Shown here piece by piece: positions 46,541 through 62,631 of a stretch of DNA of 64,000 bases; the first letter of the stretch is position 1; every line of letters starts with the position of its first letter. The DNA comes from Candidatus Woesearchaeota archaeon (GTDB lineage Archaea; Nanobdellota; Nanobdellia; Woesearchaeales; JACPJR01). The stretch covers positions 44,232 through 108,231 of the forward strand of contig JACPJR010000026.1 in NCBI GenBank assembly GCA_016187565.1. Direction: 5' to 3'. A program made the position numbers and the translations under genes. The notes below the pieces were generated by a model. The model had not been told where the DNA came from. It saw nothing but the letters and a program-made list of their open reading frames with translations, and did no database searches.

Positions 46541-47110
46541 TTGTCGTTGATCACCATGAAACTTCGCTCGCTGTATAGTCTGTTATCAATGGTTCTTGCA
46601 CTCTTTTTCTCTAGTTTCCTCATGCCTCAGGTAGATGGGGCTGATCTTCATGATTATCCAGATCTTTTCTTTGCTGATGGTCATTTCAATGGGCTTTTGG
46701 TGGTTGGTGATTATGCCAATGCAGCAGATGTGGTAGGTGTTACCTATGTTGCGTTGAGCTTACAGGCATACAGCAACACTGCCATTAATGTAGAGGCTGT
46801 TCGTTTGGCCTCTGAAATAACCAATGTCAGTGCCCAAAATCTGATTGTGGTTGGCGGACCTTGTATTAATACCGTTGCAGCAGAACTAATGGATTATCCA
46901 GTTCCCTGTACCAAGGGCTTCAGTCAGGGAATGGGATCTATTCAGCTTTATGAGCATCCTAATGGAAATATTGCTATTCTTGTTGCAGGATTAGAAGCCA
47001 TTGACACCAAGCGAGCAGCGCTTGTTCTGGCAAAGTACGATCAATACCAGATTTCTGGAACGAATGTTGAGGTCACGACAAGCACTGAACCACAGATTCT
47101 TATTCGGTAA
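46541..47110 (+). CDS. Minimal S-layer paralog (N- and C-terminal S-layer domains only)
   Basis: Signal peptide, then DLHDYPDLFFADGHFNGLLVVGDYANAADVVGVTYVALSLQA fused directly to AQNLIVVGGPCINTVAAEL...IAILVAGLEAIDTKRAAL; 189 aa. Confidence 0.6.
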   Translation: MSLITMKLRSLYSLLSMVLALFFSSFLMPQVDGADLHDYPDLFFADGHFNGLLVVGDYANAADVVGVTYVALSLQAYSNTAINVEAVRLASEITNVSAQNLIVVGGPCINTVAAELMDYPVPCTKGFSQGMGSIQLYEHPNGNIAILVAGLEAIDTKRAALVLAKYDQYQISGTNVEVTTSTEPQILIR

Positions 47111-47116
47111 CCTCTT

Positions 47117-47443
47117 TTACCGCAACCCATGCAGTCGCTGAACTAACTCATCAAAAATGTTCTTTTTCTTTTCACTCGATAGAGAAAATAATACTTTTTC
47201 AATCATAGCAGTCGAAACAGTAAAGATGTAGTTTAATTTAATGACACTATCCTTGAGAGCTCCATCCTTTTTTGTCAACAGTATGCCTTTCATTTCAAGA
47301 TTGCTGGTGATACCAGCGACCACTACATTATCAAATTCGCTGAACAGCACTACGGCAGGTCTTTTTTTAATCTCAAACGTATCAGTAAACTGGACATGAG
47401 CGAGAACAATATCGCCTGGCTTAGGCATTTTCCCATGCCTCAT
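47117..47443 (-). CDS. MazF/PemK-family toxin
   Basis: PKPGDIVLAHVQF...KKRPAVVL matches the PemK/MazF N-terminal consensus; 108 aa. Overlaps the upstream antitoxin by 23 nt. Confidence 0.65.
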   Translation of the reverse strand: MRHGKMPKPGDIVLAHVQFTDTFEIKKRPAVVLFSEFDNVVVAGITSNLEMKGILLTKKDGALKDSVIKLNYIFTVSTAMIEKVLFSLSSEKKKNIFDELVQRLHGLR

Positions 47444-47645
47444 CTTCTTTGTTGTCCCACAGTTCTTTCATCTTAACTTGCTGAGTTTTATGGAGAAACT
47501 CATCATATTGGTTTCTTTTCTTTATATTCTTACATGTATGAATCATCTGCTTAATCAATTCATTATAGGTCTGTCGAGGATATTCTTTCACTTCCTTTAA
47601 TGATGCTACAACGGATTTCTCAAGTTGTATAGTTGTTGCGCTCAT
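47421..47645 (-). CDS. Putative antitoxin (RHH/MazE-like) of the MazF-like toxin
   Basis: 74 aa with N-terminal beta strand TTIQLEKSVVASL followed by helices; immediately upstream of, and overlapping, the toxin. Confidence 0.5.
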   Translation of the reverse strand: MSATTIQLEKSVVASLKEVKEYPRQTYNELIKQMIHTCKNIKKRNQYDEFLHKTQQVKMKELWDNKEDEAWENA

Positions 47646-47795
47646 TATACATCACCAATAGTAGGTATATAATCAGTTATATATAAACTTTGCTTTTCTG
47701 ATGAGTGGTTGTTTTTAAATGTGTAAACAGAATAGCAAATGGAACACCAGAATTGCCTGTCCGAAACGTTTATATAGAGAAGTAACATCAACTTC

Positions 47796-47996
47796 TTGGT
47801 GAAAGATATGACAAGGACAATAACGATAAATGAAGATATTTTTCAGGAAATGATACGGAAGAAAGAAGAATTCGATGTTATTGTGGAATCAATAGAACTT
47901 ATGAATGCTCCTGAGGTGCGAGAATCAATAAGAAGGAGCAAAGAAGATATCAACGCTGGAAGAATACACAAGCTAAAGGATGTTCTCAAAAAATGA
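47796..47996 (+). CDS. Phd/RelB-like antitoxin
   Basis: 66 aa, acidic; overlaps the downstream RelE-like gene by 4 nt (ATGA). Confidence 0.5.
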   Translation: MVKDMTRTITINEDIFQEMIRKKEEFDVIVESIELMNAPEVRESIRRSKEDINAGRIHKLKDVLKK

Positions 47997-48247
47997 GTTA
48001 TGAAGTTATATTAACCGACTCTTTCTTAAAGGATGTGAAAAAATTAAAGAATAAACCACTTGAAGAGCAGGTTCTCTACAAATTACAGGAACTTGAGGAG
48101 AGTCCAGAAAGAAACAAGAAACTACAATACGAATTGAAGGATTATTATAGAATAAGAGTAGGAAAACTTCGAATTCTTTACACCATTCAAGGCAATAGAG
48201 TTTATGTTGAAGTTCTCGTCAGAGGACATAAGTACGAAGAGGTATAG
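47993..48247 (+). CDS. RelE/ParE-family toxin
   Basis: C-terminal LKDYYRIRVGKLRILYTIQGNRVYVEVLVRGHKYEEV matches the RelE/ParE consensus. Confidence 0.7.
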   Translation: MSYEVILTDSFLKDVKKLKNKPLEEQVLYKLQELEESPERNKKLQYELKDYYRIRVGKLRILYTIQGNRVYVEVLVRGHKYEEV

Positions 48248-48300
48248 GGCGGGCAATAAACCTCACATGTGTTTTTAACTGCGTCTTTCGATCGTATAGC

Positions 48301-48588
48301 TCATTTGAAGATGTCAGAAACAGACTCTATTTTAATAGTCTTTTCTTTTTTAATCTTCGCAAGTTTCTTGATAAACGCTTCCTTGAGCGGTAATTCGTCA
48401 ACAGGATGCCAGTCTATGCTCTCACAAAACGTCCAGTCGTCATCAGAAACTTCTCCGGTTTGAAGGTACTTTTCAAAAATCAGCTTCTTTCTGGTTTCTT
48501 CTTTAGCGATCTCGCTCCAATTAACCCATTCGAAATGCTTTAGCTTTTCCTTAAATTCACTGCTTATTGATAATGTTACCGATGCCAC
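48301..48588 (-). CDS. Orphan VapB-like (SpoVT/AbrB or RHH-type) small protein, GTG start
   Basis: VTLSISSEFKEKLKHFEWVNWSEIAKEETRKKL is homologous to the VapB-like antitoxin at 62306-62533 (ITLAIPEDLHTRMREHSEIRWSEVVRKTITQKI); 95 aa. Confidence 0.4.
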   Translation of the reverse strand: MASVTLSISSEFKEKLKHFEWVNWSEIAKEETRKKLIFEKYLQTGEVSDDDWTFCESIDWHPVDELPLKEAFIKKLAKIKKEKTIKIESVSDIFK

Positions 48589-48589
48589 G

Positions 48590-48745
48590 TTAGAGCGCTC
48601 CTTTATTCTTCAATTCTTCAAACTTTAGCAATTCATGTATTCTAAGCTGGAATCTCTTTTTTAGATATTCAGCTAAGTTAATTTCAGGGAATTTATCAAT
48701 TTCTTCTTTCAATTCCTTAGGTATTGATACCGTAAAGGTAGCCAT
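48590..48745 (-). CDS. Small VapB-like paralog (51 aa)
   Basis: Manual translation MATFTVSIPKELKEEIDKFPEINLAEYLKKRFQLRIHELLKFEELKNKGAL; tandem paralog of the downstream gene; not in the ORF track. Confidence 0.35.
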   Translation of the reverse strand: MATFTVSIPKELKEEIDKFPEINLAEYLKKRFQLRIHELLKFEELKNKGAL

Positions 48746-48864
48746 AGTACGAGCACCCAACTTAGTTAATACACGAGAATTCGTTTGTCTATTTAAACTT
48801 TGCTTCTTTTGAGACGTTTATCTCTCACAAAACGTCCAGTCTTCATGAGAAATTTATTTTGTGG

Positions 48865-49758
48865 TCACTTGGCATATCTATAATACATTTTCAAATATCT
48901 CTTTACTAAAGATTGTACAAAAATATAGTCTTTGTTCTTCGTCTGGCTTCTCTCGAGAGCGTTATAATAACTGTTTCGGTTTGTATACTCAATGTTTAAC
49001 ATCGGATAGCTGTGCTTATGCAATACAAAATTCATCATTAATCTTGAAATTCTTCCATTACCATCGCTAAATGGATGGATAGTTACAAATTTCAAATGAA
49101 CCAACGAAGCCAAGACTACGGGGTTTAGTTTACTTTTATTTTTATGGTACCAGCTACAAAAATCATGGAGCAAAATATCAAGCTCTGCTGGGAATGGTAG
49201 TTCTACTTTGCTTCGAGCAATAGCTACTTGATGCTTTCTTATTACCCCTGCAATATCAGGCTTGGTGTCTTGTAAAAGTAGCTTGTGCCAATAAAGTACC
49301 GTAGACAGACTTAAATCTTTCTTAGAGTCTAGCATTTCATAGAAAACTTTCCTATGAGCTTCTGCTTCTTTCACATCCTCTAGAGGCTTATTTCTGGGCG
49401 TTATGTGTTGCTGTAACAAATCAGCCGTTTCTTTCAACGACAGTGTACTACCCTCTATTCTGTTGGTGTTATACGTAAATCTAATCATAAATGATTCAAT
49501 GTGCTGTTCTCTCGCAGAAGGGGGATAGGTAGAGAAATCCTCGCTAAATTTCTTCTGAATACTCTCAAGATTTTCGTTAAATTTCTCTAAGAATAGCTCG
49601 TGCATGAATTTTTCTTTAATTAATGCTGTATTCTTAGGCTCTTCAGAACCAAGATACTTTCTTTTGTTCCTAAATCTCTTACCTTCTCTGATGGTGTGTT
49701 CGAGATAATAATAAGTCTTACCTTTAACTGTTCTTATCCTCAGGTTCACCATAAACAC
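48865..49758 (-). CDS. Fic/DOC-family protein (putative AMPylase)
   Basis: Fic motif HPFSDGNGRISR; 297 aa. Confidence 0.8.
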   Translation of the reverse strand: MFMVNLRIRTVKGKTYYYLEHTIREGKRFRNKRKYLGSEEPKNTALIKEKFMHELFLEKFNENLESIQKKFSEDFSTYPPSAREQHIESFMIRFTYNTNRIEGSTLSLKETADLLQQHITPRNKPLEDVKEAEAHRKVFYEMLDSKKDLSLSTVLYWHKLLLQDTKPDIAGVIRKHQVAIARSKVELPFPAELDILLHDFCSWYHKNKSKLNPVVLASLVHLKFVTIHPFSDGNGRISRLMMNFVLHKHSYPMLNIEYTNRNSYYNALERSQTKNKDYIFVQSLVKRYLKMYYRYAK

Positions 49759-49855: not shown

Positions 49856-52153
49856 TTAATCACAAGGTGGTCCTGGATGTGCACAATGTGTAGCAGGATC
49901 AGTAGCACTTACCGCAGCTGCTGTTGCAGTAGGATCAGGAGGTGGATCTACAGCAGTATGATCTAATGCAGCCCTCTCTTGAGCTTGTCGTTTCCAGTCA
50001 TCTCTTTCCTCTTGGGTTGGTGGATCTTTTGGTACCTCATTATAGTCCACAGGAAGTTTATCAAAGCTATAGATTTCTTCTCCACCCCATATAGCTGCAT
50101 AGGGACCTGTAGGGTAACTATCACTATCTGTGTAATAATATTTACCTTCTTTAACTCTTACCTCGTAATACTTTCCATCTGGCTGCTTGATGTACAGAGA
50201 ATTAAACTCCAAATCGCCAAACAGATCATCAAGACCAACAGCATCGGGAAGTCCAGAGTTGATGGTAATTATGTCATTCTCTGTCCTTGTCCATTCTTTT
50301 CTTGCTTCTCCTGGAGAGTTGCGGGTTTCAGCGCCAGTCTCTCCATCTGGAGCTGGTTCAGCACTTTCTTCTGCTTCGTCCTTTGTTGCATCAGCACTTA
50401 CTGCTGCTGCCTCAGGAGCACCACTCGTACCTGCAGCAGTGTCAATCGCATACCATCCATCTGGTTTCAGGGTACCTAAATCAATTGGAAATGTAACTAA
50501 CTTATTTTTATCGTTGTCCCATGCGGTTACGTCGTTGAACAGAGTTGTGGAAGTGGGATCAACACTCACTCTCATTTGATTTAGGTCATTGATGCTGGCT
50601 ATTTGACCGCCTCCTTTATTCTTACCAAGAGCGTCAAGAGGTTCTGTGGAGAAGGAGACCTGTGTTGTTGATGTTGGTTGTTTTTTTTCAGGATCTTGCG
50701 TTGTCCCTACCCATAAAGGTTGCTTATCAGGTATTCTGTTGTCATACTCGTAGAATAGCTCCTGGTTGTCAACATTGACTCTAGCTAGATCCTCTACATG
50801 ATTCTCTTCAAAGTCAAACTCTTCTGTTGTTGCCAATTGTACCTTTTGTCCTTCAATGCTGGTGTAGAGGTCTTTATACATTCCCTCTACTGCGATATCG
50901 CTCTCACCCTTCTTTTGCGTTACCTTTCCTTGTCCCAGAAGCACAGTTTCAGTGCCGGTGAAAATTGCGACTGGAGTATTTTCATCCGTTCTGAGAGTCT
51001 CTATTGCAGTTACATCTCCGTTCAAAGCCTTCTCTCCGTCAGAACCTTCTTCAACGCCAAAGAGAACCCGGAGCCCATGGTCGGGGGCATTCTCAAACCG
51101 CGTAGCCGTACCTGAAAGAGCATCGGTAGCATATGCATCACCATCTTTAATGGTTGTTTCAGTCAACGCTTGAAGTCCTTGTCGGTCACTAAATCGAATT
51201 CCAAAGTAGTTTCCTTTTCCTTTCACATCGTATTTTTTTCCATTAACCTCTGTCAGAAAGGTGAATTCAACATCCAGTGTAGAGACAATAAGATTCGCGT
51301 CAGGATTAAACGTGACCGTGGCATCATTCTTCCCGGGCTGTGCCATAATATAATCACTTTCCCGGTTAGTAAACAATTTACCTTGGATTTTCCAGTTGCT
51401 CCCTTGAGCTAATGAAAAATGTCCTTCCACGAATTCAAATCTGACTGCAGGGTGGTCAGATTCTCCTTCTACTCTACGATACGTCACCCCATCTCGGGTA
51501 ACTGTTCCAACTCCATTAATAATAAACTGATCACCTTCTAAGGTCATTGATGCTCCAGGTTCACCTCTAAATACACTATCCGTGCCTGCTACAGGAACCG
51601 TGACTTTTCCTCCTTTATCAGCGAATGTTACCTTAATTGAGTCCCCCTGCTCAGGATATCCCTCGTTAACGACAGTAATCATTGCTGCACTGTCAAACTC
51701 ACAGGTCTTTCCTTGATAGATACTCTGACAATATTTCTCGGCAATGGTTTTATCTTTCTCAGCAGTCATACCATCTGGGAATAAGGTTGATGAGGTTAGG
51801 TAGTTGTGTGCATTATTGAGGGTGTTGTCTGTGTAGGTCTCACCACTATCACTGCTTTCCAAATATCGTTGAAAGAGATCCTTATTGCTCTCACTGACCT
51901 CGGGTTTATTTTCAAAATAGGTCTTTGCATAGTCTCCTTTATAGTTGGCTGTTAACCATTTCGGACAACTCTCTGGGTTAGTTTCACACCAGGTACTAAA
52001 ATCTTCAACATTTTCACCAGTAAATTGTTGGTTTCCATCGTCAGAGTCACCCCCCCCGACATCTGTTTCTGCAGAGATGAGGGGTGAGAACACCACTAAC
52101 ACTACAAGTAACGTTATCCATAATGGTATCATCATTTGTTTCATCGTTATCAA
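49856..52153 (-). CDS. Large secreted protein (operon member H), Cys-containing C-terminus
   Basis: Signal peptide MITMKQMMIPLWITLLVVLVVFSPLISA. 765 aa. Pro/Ala/Thr-rich C-terminal tail ending CAHPGPPCD. G8 homopolymer near the 5' end. Confidence 0.6.
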   Translation of the reverse strand: MITMKQMMIPLWITLLVVLVVFSPLISAETDVGGGDSDDGNQQFTGENVEDFSTWCETNPESCPKWLTANYKGDYAKTYFENKPEVSESNKDLFQRYLESSDSGETYTDNTLNNAHNYLTSSTLFPDGMTAEKDKTIAEKYCQSIYQGKTCEFDSAAMITVVNEGYPEQGDSIKVTFADKGGKVTVPVAGTDSVFRGEPGASMTLEGDQFIINGVGTVTRDGVTYRRVEGESDHPAVRFEFVEGHFSLAQGSNWKIQGKLFTNRESDYIMAQPGKNDATVTFNPDANLIVSTLDVEFTFLTEVNGKKYDVKGKGNYFGIRFSDRQGLQALTETTIKDGDAYATDALSGTATRFENAPDHGLRVLFGVEEGSDGEKALNGDVTAIETLRTDENTPVAIFTGTETVLLGQGKVTQKKGESDIAVEGMYKDLYTSIEGQKVQLATTEEFDFEENHVEDLARVNVDNQELFYEYDNRIPDKQPLWVGTTQDPEKKQPTSTTQVSFSTEPLDALGKNKGGGQIASINDLNQMRVSVDPTSTTLFNDVTAWDNDKNKLVTFPIDLGTLKPDGWYAIDTAAGTSGAPEAAAVSADATKDEAEESAEPAPDGETGAETRNSPGEARKEWTRTENDIITINSGLPDAVGLDDLFGDLEFNSLYIKQPDGKYYEVRVKEGKYYYTDSDSYPTGPYAAIWGGEEIYSFDKLPVDYNEVPKDPPTQEERDDWKRQAQERAALDHTAVDPPPDPTATAAAVSATDPATHCAHPGPPCD

Positions 52154-61871: not shown

Positions 61872-62309
61872 CTATTTGGTTTTTTCTTTTTCTTCAGGAA
61901 AAAACAGTTTTACAATATGCTTTGTCTTAAAAACTCTAACTTTATTCTGTTTTTCAAGATGAGGGTCATCTGACCACATCTTAGAATTTTCAATGCCAAA
62001 AGCAGTTGCCAAGAAAACAACATCATCAGGATCAATTTTTCCAAGAAGTTTATCAACTTCTTCTATTTTAAGCTTAATCTGCTCTTCTGGGACTAAAGTA
62101 ATATGCTTTAGTAAATGATTTAACAATTCTGTATATTCTTCTTCATTCATTCCAGATTTTTCTAGAACTAAATCTTTATACTTCCTTATCTCGTGGAAAG
62201 AAGATTCTGGATAGAAAAAGTCCCAGCCAGACTCAACAATAATCTTTCTTACAGTAGAATCCCTAATAAGACTAGCAAGAAGGATATTAGAGTCAATGAC
62301 AAGAATCAT
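61872..62309 (-). CDS. vapC: PIN-domain toxin VapC
   Basis: MILVIDSNILLA N-terminal PIN motif and DDVVFLATAF C-terminal motif; 145 aa; overlaps vapB by 4 nt. Confidence 0.65.
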   Translation of the reverse strand: MILVIDSNILLASLIRDSTVRKIIVESGWDFFYPESSFHEIRKYKDLVLEKSGMNEEEYTELLNHLLKHITLVPEEQIKLKIEEVDKLLGKIDPDDVVFLATAFGIENSKMWSDDPHLEKQNKVRVFKTKHIVKLFFPEEKEKTK

Positions 62310-62533
62310 CTTCTTAGACCGAGTTTTCTTGCAACTGCACTATCTACTTTATTAGCAATTTCATCTACATCTTTTTGTGTTAATTTACTCTTAGCAGTTA
62401 GTTTGTCCATAACATCTAAATCTTCTATCTTCTGGGTTATAGTTTTTCTAACTACTTCACTCCACCTAATCTCAGAGTGTTCTCTCATTCTTGTGTGTAA
62501 ATCTTCCGGTATTGCTAATGTTATATTTGGCAT
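62306..62533 (-). CDS. vapB: VapB-like antitoxin
   Basis: 75 aa, ITLAIPEDLHTRMREH beta-strand/helix N-terminus; upstream of, and overlapping, vapC. Confidence 0.55.
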   Translation of the reverse strand: MPNITLAIPEDLHTRMREHSEIRWSEVVRKTITQKIEDLDVMDKLTAKSKLTQKDVDEIANKVDSAVARKLGLRR

Positions 62534-62631
62534 GTTTTATCACCTTATGTGGATAGATGTGATTACACATATATAAACCTTTCGCTAAGTTTTCGTAAAA
62601 ACGTCCTTTCGTCAGTTAGGAAACCCCCGTT

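Follow-up and report, generated by a model that had tools for sequence, protein, structure and literature searches.

Two small genes in a woesearchaeal toxin-antitoxin island and the three-gene DPANN cassette from which they appear to derive

Introduction

Between an S-layer-type gene (stop codon at 47110) and a gene for a 765-amino-acid (aa) surface protein (stop codon at 49856), a 64,000-nucleotide (nt) stretch of the genome of a Candidatus Woesearchaeota archaeon (contig JACPJR010000026.1, positions 44,232 to 108,231; hereafter the window) holds a toxin-antitoxin island of 2.7 kb (~47.1-49.8 kb, genes on both strands), recognised by its low GC and its gene content. The island contains two intact toxin-antitoxin pairs (modules 1 and 2) and a Fic gene, and between them lie two small genes, here called F (51 aa) and E (95 aa), that have no toxin beside them. 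How such a pair came to stand alone, and whether it is a dying remnant or is kept for some use, is the question that this locus raises.

The original prediction, made from the letters of the sequence, described a compact toxin-antitoxin island marked by repeated duplication and degeneration, and took F and E for two tandem orphan VapB genes whose PIN partner was missing. The compact island and its degeneration were borne out, with both proposed toxins above their family thresholds, one further toxin deleted and one pseudogene fragment present, and all five sequence items of that prediction exist, at slightly shifted coordinates. The origin of the pair is a different one: F and E correspond to genes 1 and 2 in a conserved cassette of three genes, which encode a 51-aa ribbon-helix-helix (RHH) protein, a 95-aa protein with an RHH domain plus tail, and a RelE/ParE toxin of ~88 aa. 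No description of an F-E-toxin cassette was found in the literature searched, and the cassette is apparently undescribed and widespread in DPANN archaea. The explanation that we consider probable is that the island accreted from self-contained addiction cassettes, and that its third module is the front two-thirds of the three-gene DPANN cassette with the toxin deleted.

A conserved three-gene cassette

F (48590..48745, minus strand), the presumed operator-binding regulator, is recognised by gene order and by a profile built from its relatives, on which it scores 112 bits; it is 61-78 % identical to them. E (48301..48588, minus strand, GTG start), the presumed antitoxin proper, is recognised by its homologues and conserved residues, and is identical to HYW21_07195 of a Candidatus Woesearchaeota metagenome-assembled genome. 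Homologues of E form 639 clusters at 90 % identity, 67-82 % identical over their full length, with no Pfam family for any of them; E relatives are almost all annotated as Woese-, Pace- or Nanoarchaeota, which identifies the window as DNA of a DPANN archaeon. An exhaustive HMMER search of 50 %-identity representatives gave 117 E-related clusters, just 3 of them below 1e-30. By these comparisons the E family is tight and highly conserved, and the E protein of the window has lost none of the residues that are invariant or nearly so in an alignment of 33 sequences.

The setting of these genes in other species was surveyed in one genome per GTDB species, which yielded 200 stretches encoding an E relative, of which 80 loci were kept; with four of five loci looked up individually for their context, the census comprises 84 loci and 88 cassettes, the profiles having been built from the first loci. 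F lies directly upstream of E in all 88 cassettes. A toxin match is present in 81 of the 83 cassettes in which it could be tested, that is, those with at least 300 nt of downstream sequence, and in 29 cassettes the stop codon of E overlaps the toxin start in the tetranucleotide ATGA. Each of the five context look-ups shows a 51-aa gene, a 95-99-aa gene and an 87-89-aa ParE_toxin gene, all co-directional, in five unrelated neighbourhoods where the neighbours include Pelota, a proteasome subunit, gyrase B, ribosomal protein S3Ae and a reverse-transcriptase/integrase element; the cassette often stands beside housekeeping genes. The cassette toxin matches ParE_toxin at 3e-7 and the PHROG family of RelE-like toxins at 1.8e-8. 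Among the cassettes without an intact toxin are three with toxin pseudogenes (L092, L068 and L049) and one with a truncation (L078), and these toxin-less exceptions are decay products in their own right.

Two further arrangements were seen in relatives. At three loci (L077, L086 and L093) two or three diverged cassettes stand head to tail, each with its own TATA box and with palindromes of differing sequence. On a metagenomic contig (L012:1-8900) a cassette lies among an RVT_1 plus HTH_40 reverse transcriptase, a PLD-like nuclease, an Hjc resolvase and a phage-type integrase, an evident mobile or defence region.

The two small proteins differ in layout: F is the RHH-like domain alone, whereas in E an RHH-like N-terminus is followed by the motif DWxFCExIDWHPVDELP and then by a basic tail at the C-terminus. 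The motif is unusually conserved and without a known counterpart. The N-terminal 35 columns of F and E are homologous (hhalign probability 96.4 %, E-value 1.2e-9), and F shows weak matches to VapB_Sulfo and RHH_12. The helices of the AlphaFold model of E fit a strand-helix-helix arrangement followed by three further helices, in a model too weak for fold assignment. Profiles of E and F found no credible match among solved structures, PADLOC and PHROGs returned nothing for the small proteins of the window, and a search of viral contigs found none that encodes the 95-aa protein.

Five distantly related proteins (P0277, P0279, P0284, P0294 and P0296) match E only over residues ~30-95, which comprise the DWxFC…HPVDELP motif and the tail, and have different N-termini; this portion of E therefore behaves as a separable module.

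The tail of E weakly matches DUF2683. In one relative (L106:1100-1611) a plain two-gene module consists of a gene for a 79-aa DUF2683-like antitoxin followed by one for an 89-aa toxin whose score on the cassette-toxin profile is 64 bits; the 79-aa protein matches the E profile and has a similar tail (…ELRPEYLEKLQKIRKQKGIPF…). This module suggests that the three-gene cassette may have arisen from a two-gene ancestor by swapped or added RHH domains. Because the tail of E resembles a DUF2683-type antitoxin that is paired with the same toxin clade, the comparison also points to E as the protein that would neutralise the toxin, with F as a probable added regulator.

Promoters and a putative operator

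The original prediction noted a motif shared by the upstream regions of both minus-strand units and read it as a duplicated leader. The motif is real: the 12-mer TAAACTTTGCTT occurs at exactly two sites, 47684 and 48794, where 0.06 are expected. Read on the minus strand it is AAGCAAAGTTTA, continued by TATATA at one of the sites and by AATA at the second, and the two sites are elements composed of a transcription factor B recognition element (BRE) plus a TATA box, ~35-50 nt upstream of each start codon. Most of the first copy is contained in the BRE/TATA of module 1 (AAAGTTTATATA, 47680..47691, minus strand), identified by homology to a related locus (L108), and most of the second in the BRE/TATA of the F-E operon (AAAGTTTAAATA, 48790..48801, minus strand), identified by cassette homology, which ends at 48801. 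Module 2 has a TATA box, read from the sequence, at 47769..47776 on the plus strand (TTTATATA), and the same element, CGAAAnnTTTATATAG, precedes the orthologous module 2 in L105. Because the consensus (A/C)GAAAG(N)TTTAWATA also precedes the Fic gene, the vapB-like gene at 62533, other sites in the window and orthologous modules elsewhere, the 12-mer is the general promoter of the clade and not a pair of duplicated leaders; the window holds 8 matches to two patterns of 12-13 nt, including the two module sites, where 0.03-0.04 are expected for each pattern. A scan for bacterial promoters and terminators, which does not cover archaeal promoters, gave nothing above shuffled controls.

Just downstream of the F-E TATA box lies a putative operator (48755..48784, minus strand) recognised by cassette statistics. 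It consists of a palindrome, ACGAATTCTCGT, at 48773-48784 and a degenerate unit, ACTAAGTTGGGT, at 48755-48766, 18 bp apart. Of 67 cassettes, 55 have one or more AC.A-N4-T.G(T/C) units, as against a shuffle mean of 2.5, and strict palindromes occur in 31 of the 67 as against 0.5 (symmetric variants T/A in 30, G/C in 3 and A/T in 3). The spacing between units is 18 bp in 25 of the 26 cassettes with two units, and the first unit begins 5 nt past the TATA box in 36 cassettes. Such palindromes are what the site of an RHH auto-repressor overlapping the transcription start would look like. No further copy of the operator palindrome was found in the 64-kb window, the single copy being at the F-E promoter.

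Loss of the toxin

Directly downstream of E, on the same strand, the window has no RelE/ParE toxin of ~88 aa. There is only a stub, MSYTIERRS* (48275..48304, minus strand), whose start codon overlaps the stop codon of E in ATGA, the same overlap at which the toxins of relatives begin with M(R/K/I)Y(G/Q)IEIKPSC. About the first six of its nine codons are homologous to the cassette toxin. Because nucleotide homology to relatives stops at ~48286, the cassette toxin has been deleted ~20 nt after its start codon, with F, E, promoter and operator left intact. Only 53 nt separate the stop codon of E (48301) from the convergent RelE stop codon (48247), with no toxin gene after E, and no homologue of the cassette toxin was found elsewhere in the 64-kb window. 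That residues and operator are intact speaks for a recent loss or for maintenance of the pair.

Origin and possible function of the orphan pair

The comparisons show the gene content, the toxin families, the architecture and frequency of the cassette, the deletion, the conservation of promoter and operator, and the GC anomaly of the island; we infer which protein binds DNA, which neutralises the toxin, what the toxins do biochemically and what present function, if any, the orphan pair has. The operon would be auto-repressed when the RHH domains of F, of E or of both bind the two palindromes, which are spaced by 18 bp; the toxin would be wrapped and neutralised by the tail at the C-terminus of E, and F would be an extra, dedicated regulator, comparable to those of the PaaR-PaaA-ParE and omega-epsilon-zeta systems. 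Deletion of the toxin soon after its start codon would have left a harmless F-E pair, which may still regulate itself and could neutralise an incoming cognate toxin (anti-addiction), or which may be a recent remnant in decay. The 42-nt remnant of a second E gene beside the Fic gene would record a further rearrangement.

That F and E are instead tandem VapB duplicates whose PIN toxin was lost, produced by repeated local duplication that included promoter or leader regions, was the original account of the pair, and it has observations to build on. The N-terminal domain shared by F and E is weakly related, as had been claimed, to the 75-aa product of the gene at 62306-62533, which pairs with a PIN_2 toxin (profile-profile probability 65 %, E-value 6e-5), and, as in VapBC systems and in that vapB-like gene, it is a short DNA-binding domain of RHH type at the N-terminus, with the pattern MxxITLxIPxxL...INWSE. 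The 51-aa protein, and it only, has a sub-threshold match to NCBIfam VapB (NF050799; 22.7 bits, cut-off 60), and a duplicated fragment of 34 nt exists. In all 88 cassettes counted in other species F and E stand in the same order, however, so the pair is not the outcome of a local event, and the two proteins are only ~32 % identical. Unlike in VapBC, a PIN partner of the pair is absent both from the window and from the cassettes of relatives, where the third gene is RelE/ParE-like in 81 of 83 and never PIN, and the shared 12-mer, being a clade-wide BRE/TATA consensus, is orthologous to the promoter of each module in relatives. Neither the lost PIN partner nor the local duplication withstands this comparison, and we consider the account highly improbable.

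It might also be supposed that F-E was never orphaned, its toxin gene being the convergent RelE/ParE gene at 47993-48247 after inversion and re-partnering; this gene ends 53 nt from the end of E, its product is of the superfamily to which the cassette toxins belong, and it matches the cassette-toxin profile weakly, at 26 bits. Intact members score 83-182 bits on that profile, however, and the convergent toxin is 28-32 % identical to them. It is visibly very similar over its whole length to toxins that partner the 62-aa antitoxin elsewhere, the homology of that unit takes in its own promoter and 13 nt past the stop codon, and the true cassette toxin has left a stub of its own, all of which makes an inversion very hard to credit. 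Domestication of F-E as a pair of transcription factors, controlling other genes such as Fic or the adjoining surface-protein operon, is an unlikely reading as well. It would fit the intact open reading frames, promoter and operator and the retention of all conserved residues, and it has a precedent in moonlighting VapB antitoxins of Sulfolobales that regulate other genes, according to one report (PMC10127717). Yet the operator palindrome occurs once in the 64-kb window, at the promoter of F-E itself, the change from an ATG to a GTG start is unique to E of the window, and toxin pseudogenes beside intact F-E genes in L092, L068 and L049 fit a decay that begins with the toxin.

The preferred reading, an accretion island whose third module is a cassette without its toxin, has points weighing against it as well. 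The stub is convincing by its exact position and not by its length, having just about six homologous codons. E of the window starts with GTG (TAACGTGGCA, 48586-48588), where each of the 65 relatives that could be scored has ATG (TAAAATGGCA-like); the GTG start could mean lowered expression or relaxed selection, which would favour a decaying remnant over retained function. The RHH fold of F and E is read from weak profile matches, and the monomer model of E has a mean confidence (pLDDT) of 66 and finds nothing below an E-value of 1 in a Foldseek search of the PDB. The horizontal origin of the island is argued from its GC alone; a metagenome scan that took the 822-aa S-layer protein of the flank as query turned up no island-free close relative, and neither an integrase nor a tRNA lies near the island. 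For the toxin of module 2, sequence cannot separate RelE activity from ParE activity, and relatives of the organism encode gyrase B.

Relation to known systems

Three-component toxin-antitoxin systems include PaaR-PaaA-ParE of Escherichia coli O157:H7, the toxin of which belongs to the RelE/ParE superfamily, and omega-epsilon-zeta of pSM19035, in which omega is an RHH protein. Like the cassette described here, they consist of three co-directional genes for a small DNA-binding regulator, an antitoxin and a toxin. In sequence the cassette shows no detectable resemblance to PaaR, PaaA, omega or epsilon, and it differs from those systems in that its regulator and antitoxin are paralogues, both with an RHH-like domain, in that its hosts are DPANN archaea and in that the toxin is missing from the window copy.

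Orphan antitoxins can act as anti-addiction modules, as exemplified by the chromosomal ccd of Erwinia chrysanthemi. The F-E pair of the window resembles them in that antitoxin, promoter and operator are kept after loss of the toxin and in that the cognate cassette circulates widely; it differs in being known from sequence alone, and its retention may simply be recent. It is possible, and we propose it tentatively while leaning slightly against it, that F-E-RelE/ParE is an undescribed three-component family largely confined to DPANN archaea, in which paralogous RHH proteins share regulation and neutralisation, possibly as a heterodimer, and that the disarmed window copy is kept. If that were true, the F-E pair would amount to immunity against re-invasion by the cassette.

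The orphan genes have led to a tightly conserved RelE/ParE cassette, widespread in reduced DPANN genomes, that encodes a pair of paralogous RHH proteins and has a clear operator of two palindromes. The window copy, a natural toxin deletion with the rest intact, may serve as a reference for the decay of such cassettes, and it bears on the question of whether disarmed antitoxin pairs are kept as anti-addiction devices. For annotation, the case shows that toxin-less small RHH genes are better read by their family-wide gene context than by a resemblance to VapB.

The two intact modules

Module 1 is an intact pair of a DUF7557 antitoxin and a PemK/MazF toxin. The toxin gene (47117..47443, minus strand, 108 aa, or 103 aa from an alternative start at 47428) encodes a MazF/PemK-type endoribonuclease by its match to Pfam PemK_toxin (PF02452; E-value 8.4e-9, 36.1 bits, cut-off 23.1); solved MazF structures match it weakly (E-value 0.18), and endoribonuclease activity is what its family would predict. 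Upstream, overlapping it by 23 nt, lies the gene for a 74-aa antitoxin of the DUF7557 family (47421..47645, minus strand), recognised by weak DUF7557 and RHH_4 matches; it has 2611 homologues, mostly annotated PF24434. Two distinct homologues of this antitoxin that were looked up (L106 and L108) both stand directly upstream of a 103-108-aa PemK gene, and their MazF orthologues are full-length with a matching antitoxin; one of these pairs lies between the genes for eIF2-gamma and ribosomal protein S6e, and the other between those for an amino-acid kinase and prolyl-tRNA synthetase. Nucleotide homology to L108 extends over 47123-47697 at 81 %, the module's own promoter included. The pair had been predicted as MazE/MazF-like, which holds for the toxin; the antitoxin belongs to DUF7557 and not to MazE/AbrB. 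The module thus resembles MazEF and PemIK systems in a toxin above the PemK_toxin threshold and an overlapping upstream antitoxin with weak RHH-like matches, and it is unlike them in the family of that antitoxin, which is neither MazE/AbrB nor PemI.

Module 2, on the plus strand, consists of a gene for a 62-aa antitoxin (47808..47996), identified by homologue length and conserved pairing, and a gene for an intact toxin of the RelE/ParE superfamily (47993..48247, 84 aa), the two joined by an ATGA overlap of 4 nt. As predicted, the toxin is RelE-like: it passes the cut-offs of both ParE_toxin (PF05016; 2.4e-9, 38.1 bits, cut-off 23) and TIGR02385 RelE_StbE (28.4 bits, cut-off 27.9). Since almost all of the 26 homologues of the antitoxin are 62 aa long, its start is probably the ATG at 47808. 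The Phd-like label given earlier to this gene (as 47796-47996) is not upheld, for the protein has no Pfam or NCBIfam match, and the one solved protein that its profile approaches, below threshold, is Rv2865 in its C-terminal part (E-value 0.27); one source labels a homologue PHD/YefM. The toxin's best matches among solved structures are RelE proteins, all below threshold, with Rv2866 at the top (E-value 0.04), so that the two chains of 3g5o are the best solved matches of toxin and antitoxin. Module 2 therefore resembles RelBE/YefM-YoeB type II modules (Rv2865-Rv2866 in 3g5o; E. coli RelBE) in its small antitoxin, 4-nt overlap and RelE/ParE-fold toxin, and it is unlike them in a 62-aa antitoxin that matches neither the Phd/YefM nor the RelB family, the 3g5o matches on both sides being sub-threshold. 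By its sequence relationships the toxin is most probably a ribosome-dependent mRNA nuclease.

The intact pair, with its 62-aa antitoxin, 84-aa ParE_toxin gene and 4-nt overlap, is also found in L100 and L105, and the window toxin is visibly very similar to those partners over its whole length (by eye; identity was not computed). Nucleotide homology of module 2 to relatives spans 47751-48260, from its own promoter to 13 nt past the stop codon. Modules 1 and 2 are ordinary, intact and mobile two-gene units that recur in unrelated neighbourhoods of other DPANN genomes. At one further locus (L103:3575-5021) a relative of the RelE toxin is 70 aa long, with a shortened and altered C-terminus and no Pfam match, and adjoins a Transposase_mut gene; this is a further case of toxin-first decay.

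Setting and extent of the island

GC is 0.32-0.39 within ~47.1-49.8 kb as against 0.42-0.48 on both flanks, an anomaly that would mark this stretch as acquired DNA; because the low-GC stretch extends over the Fic gene, that gene belongs to the island. By nucleotide homology to the loci of relatives, from which their limits were drawn, the modules are promoter-to-stop units of ~0.5 kb each with gaps of 20-55 nt. Relatives do not keep the island block as a unit, each module occurring alone and in different neighbourhoods. The two findings that would have spoken against an island, namely a lack of family matches for the toxins and conservation of the whole block as core genome, were looked for, and neither was encountered; the island itself is an ordinary addiction-module island.

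Over 46-50 kb the window is matched at 100 % identity by 8 contigs that come from separate sequencing runs within one study, which rules out a one-off assembly artefact; these 8 are all the contigs that carry the exact 95-aa protein, and they give no comparative information on the island. The metagenome scan with the 822-aa S-layer protein returned only relatives of 25-27 % identity, and the cassette-bearing locus L017 is not syntenic with the window. Scans for RNA genes found neither an Rfam family nor a tRNA within or close to the island, and no Rfam element marks its borders.

A second E-type remnant, the Fic gene and a VapBC pair

The original prediction listed a duplicated gene fragment at 48820-48852. 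The fragment is real and is the remnant of a second E-type gene, TK*ISHEDWTFCER* (48822..48863, minus strand), of ~14 codons (42 nt) with one internal stop. It matches the resident E over 34 nt at 91 % (48419-48452 and 48822-48855), 20 nt of which are exact (CTCTCACAAAACGTCCAGTC), and an 18-mer from the earlier description has exactly two copies where 0.01 are expected; with the E gene of L012 the remnant shares 38 nt at 84 %, reaching beyond the repeat within the window. Because no similar E fragment was found in the five relatives' loci searched, the remnant appears to reflect a lineage-specific rearrangement and not a feature of the cassette. Since tandem cassettes exist in other genomes, the simplest history is that a second cassette once stood here and was largely erased by deletions, by the arrival of the Fic gene or by both; a short ectopic duplication is a possible alternative. 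Between the Fic stop codon and the F promoter, at 48812-48842, there is also a 7-bp inverted repeat (GACGTTT … AAACGTC) with a 10-nt loop, and no T-run follows it on the minus strand.

The Fic gene (48865..49758, minus strand), absent from the original prediction, encodes a 297-aa protein whose stop codon lies two bases before the remnant begins. It matches Pfam Fic (PF02661) at 3.3e-19 and, among PADLOC models, the candidate defence families PDC-S04 (3.4e-33) and SoFic (4.3e-29). Its translation contains the canonical HPFSDGNGRISR and, upstream, a TNRIEG motif of inhibitory type, thus combining the HxFx(D/E)GNGRxxR and N-terminal (S/T)xxxE(G/N) signatures of Fic AMP-transferases with an intramolecular inhibitory helix.

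A complete VapBC-type pair lies outside the island at 61872-62582 on the minus strand, where the 75-aa RHH-like antitoxin (62306-62533) overlaps by 4 nt a 145-aa PIN_2 toxin (7.7e-23); the promoter element of the pair, AAAGGTTTATATA, is at 62570-62582.

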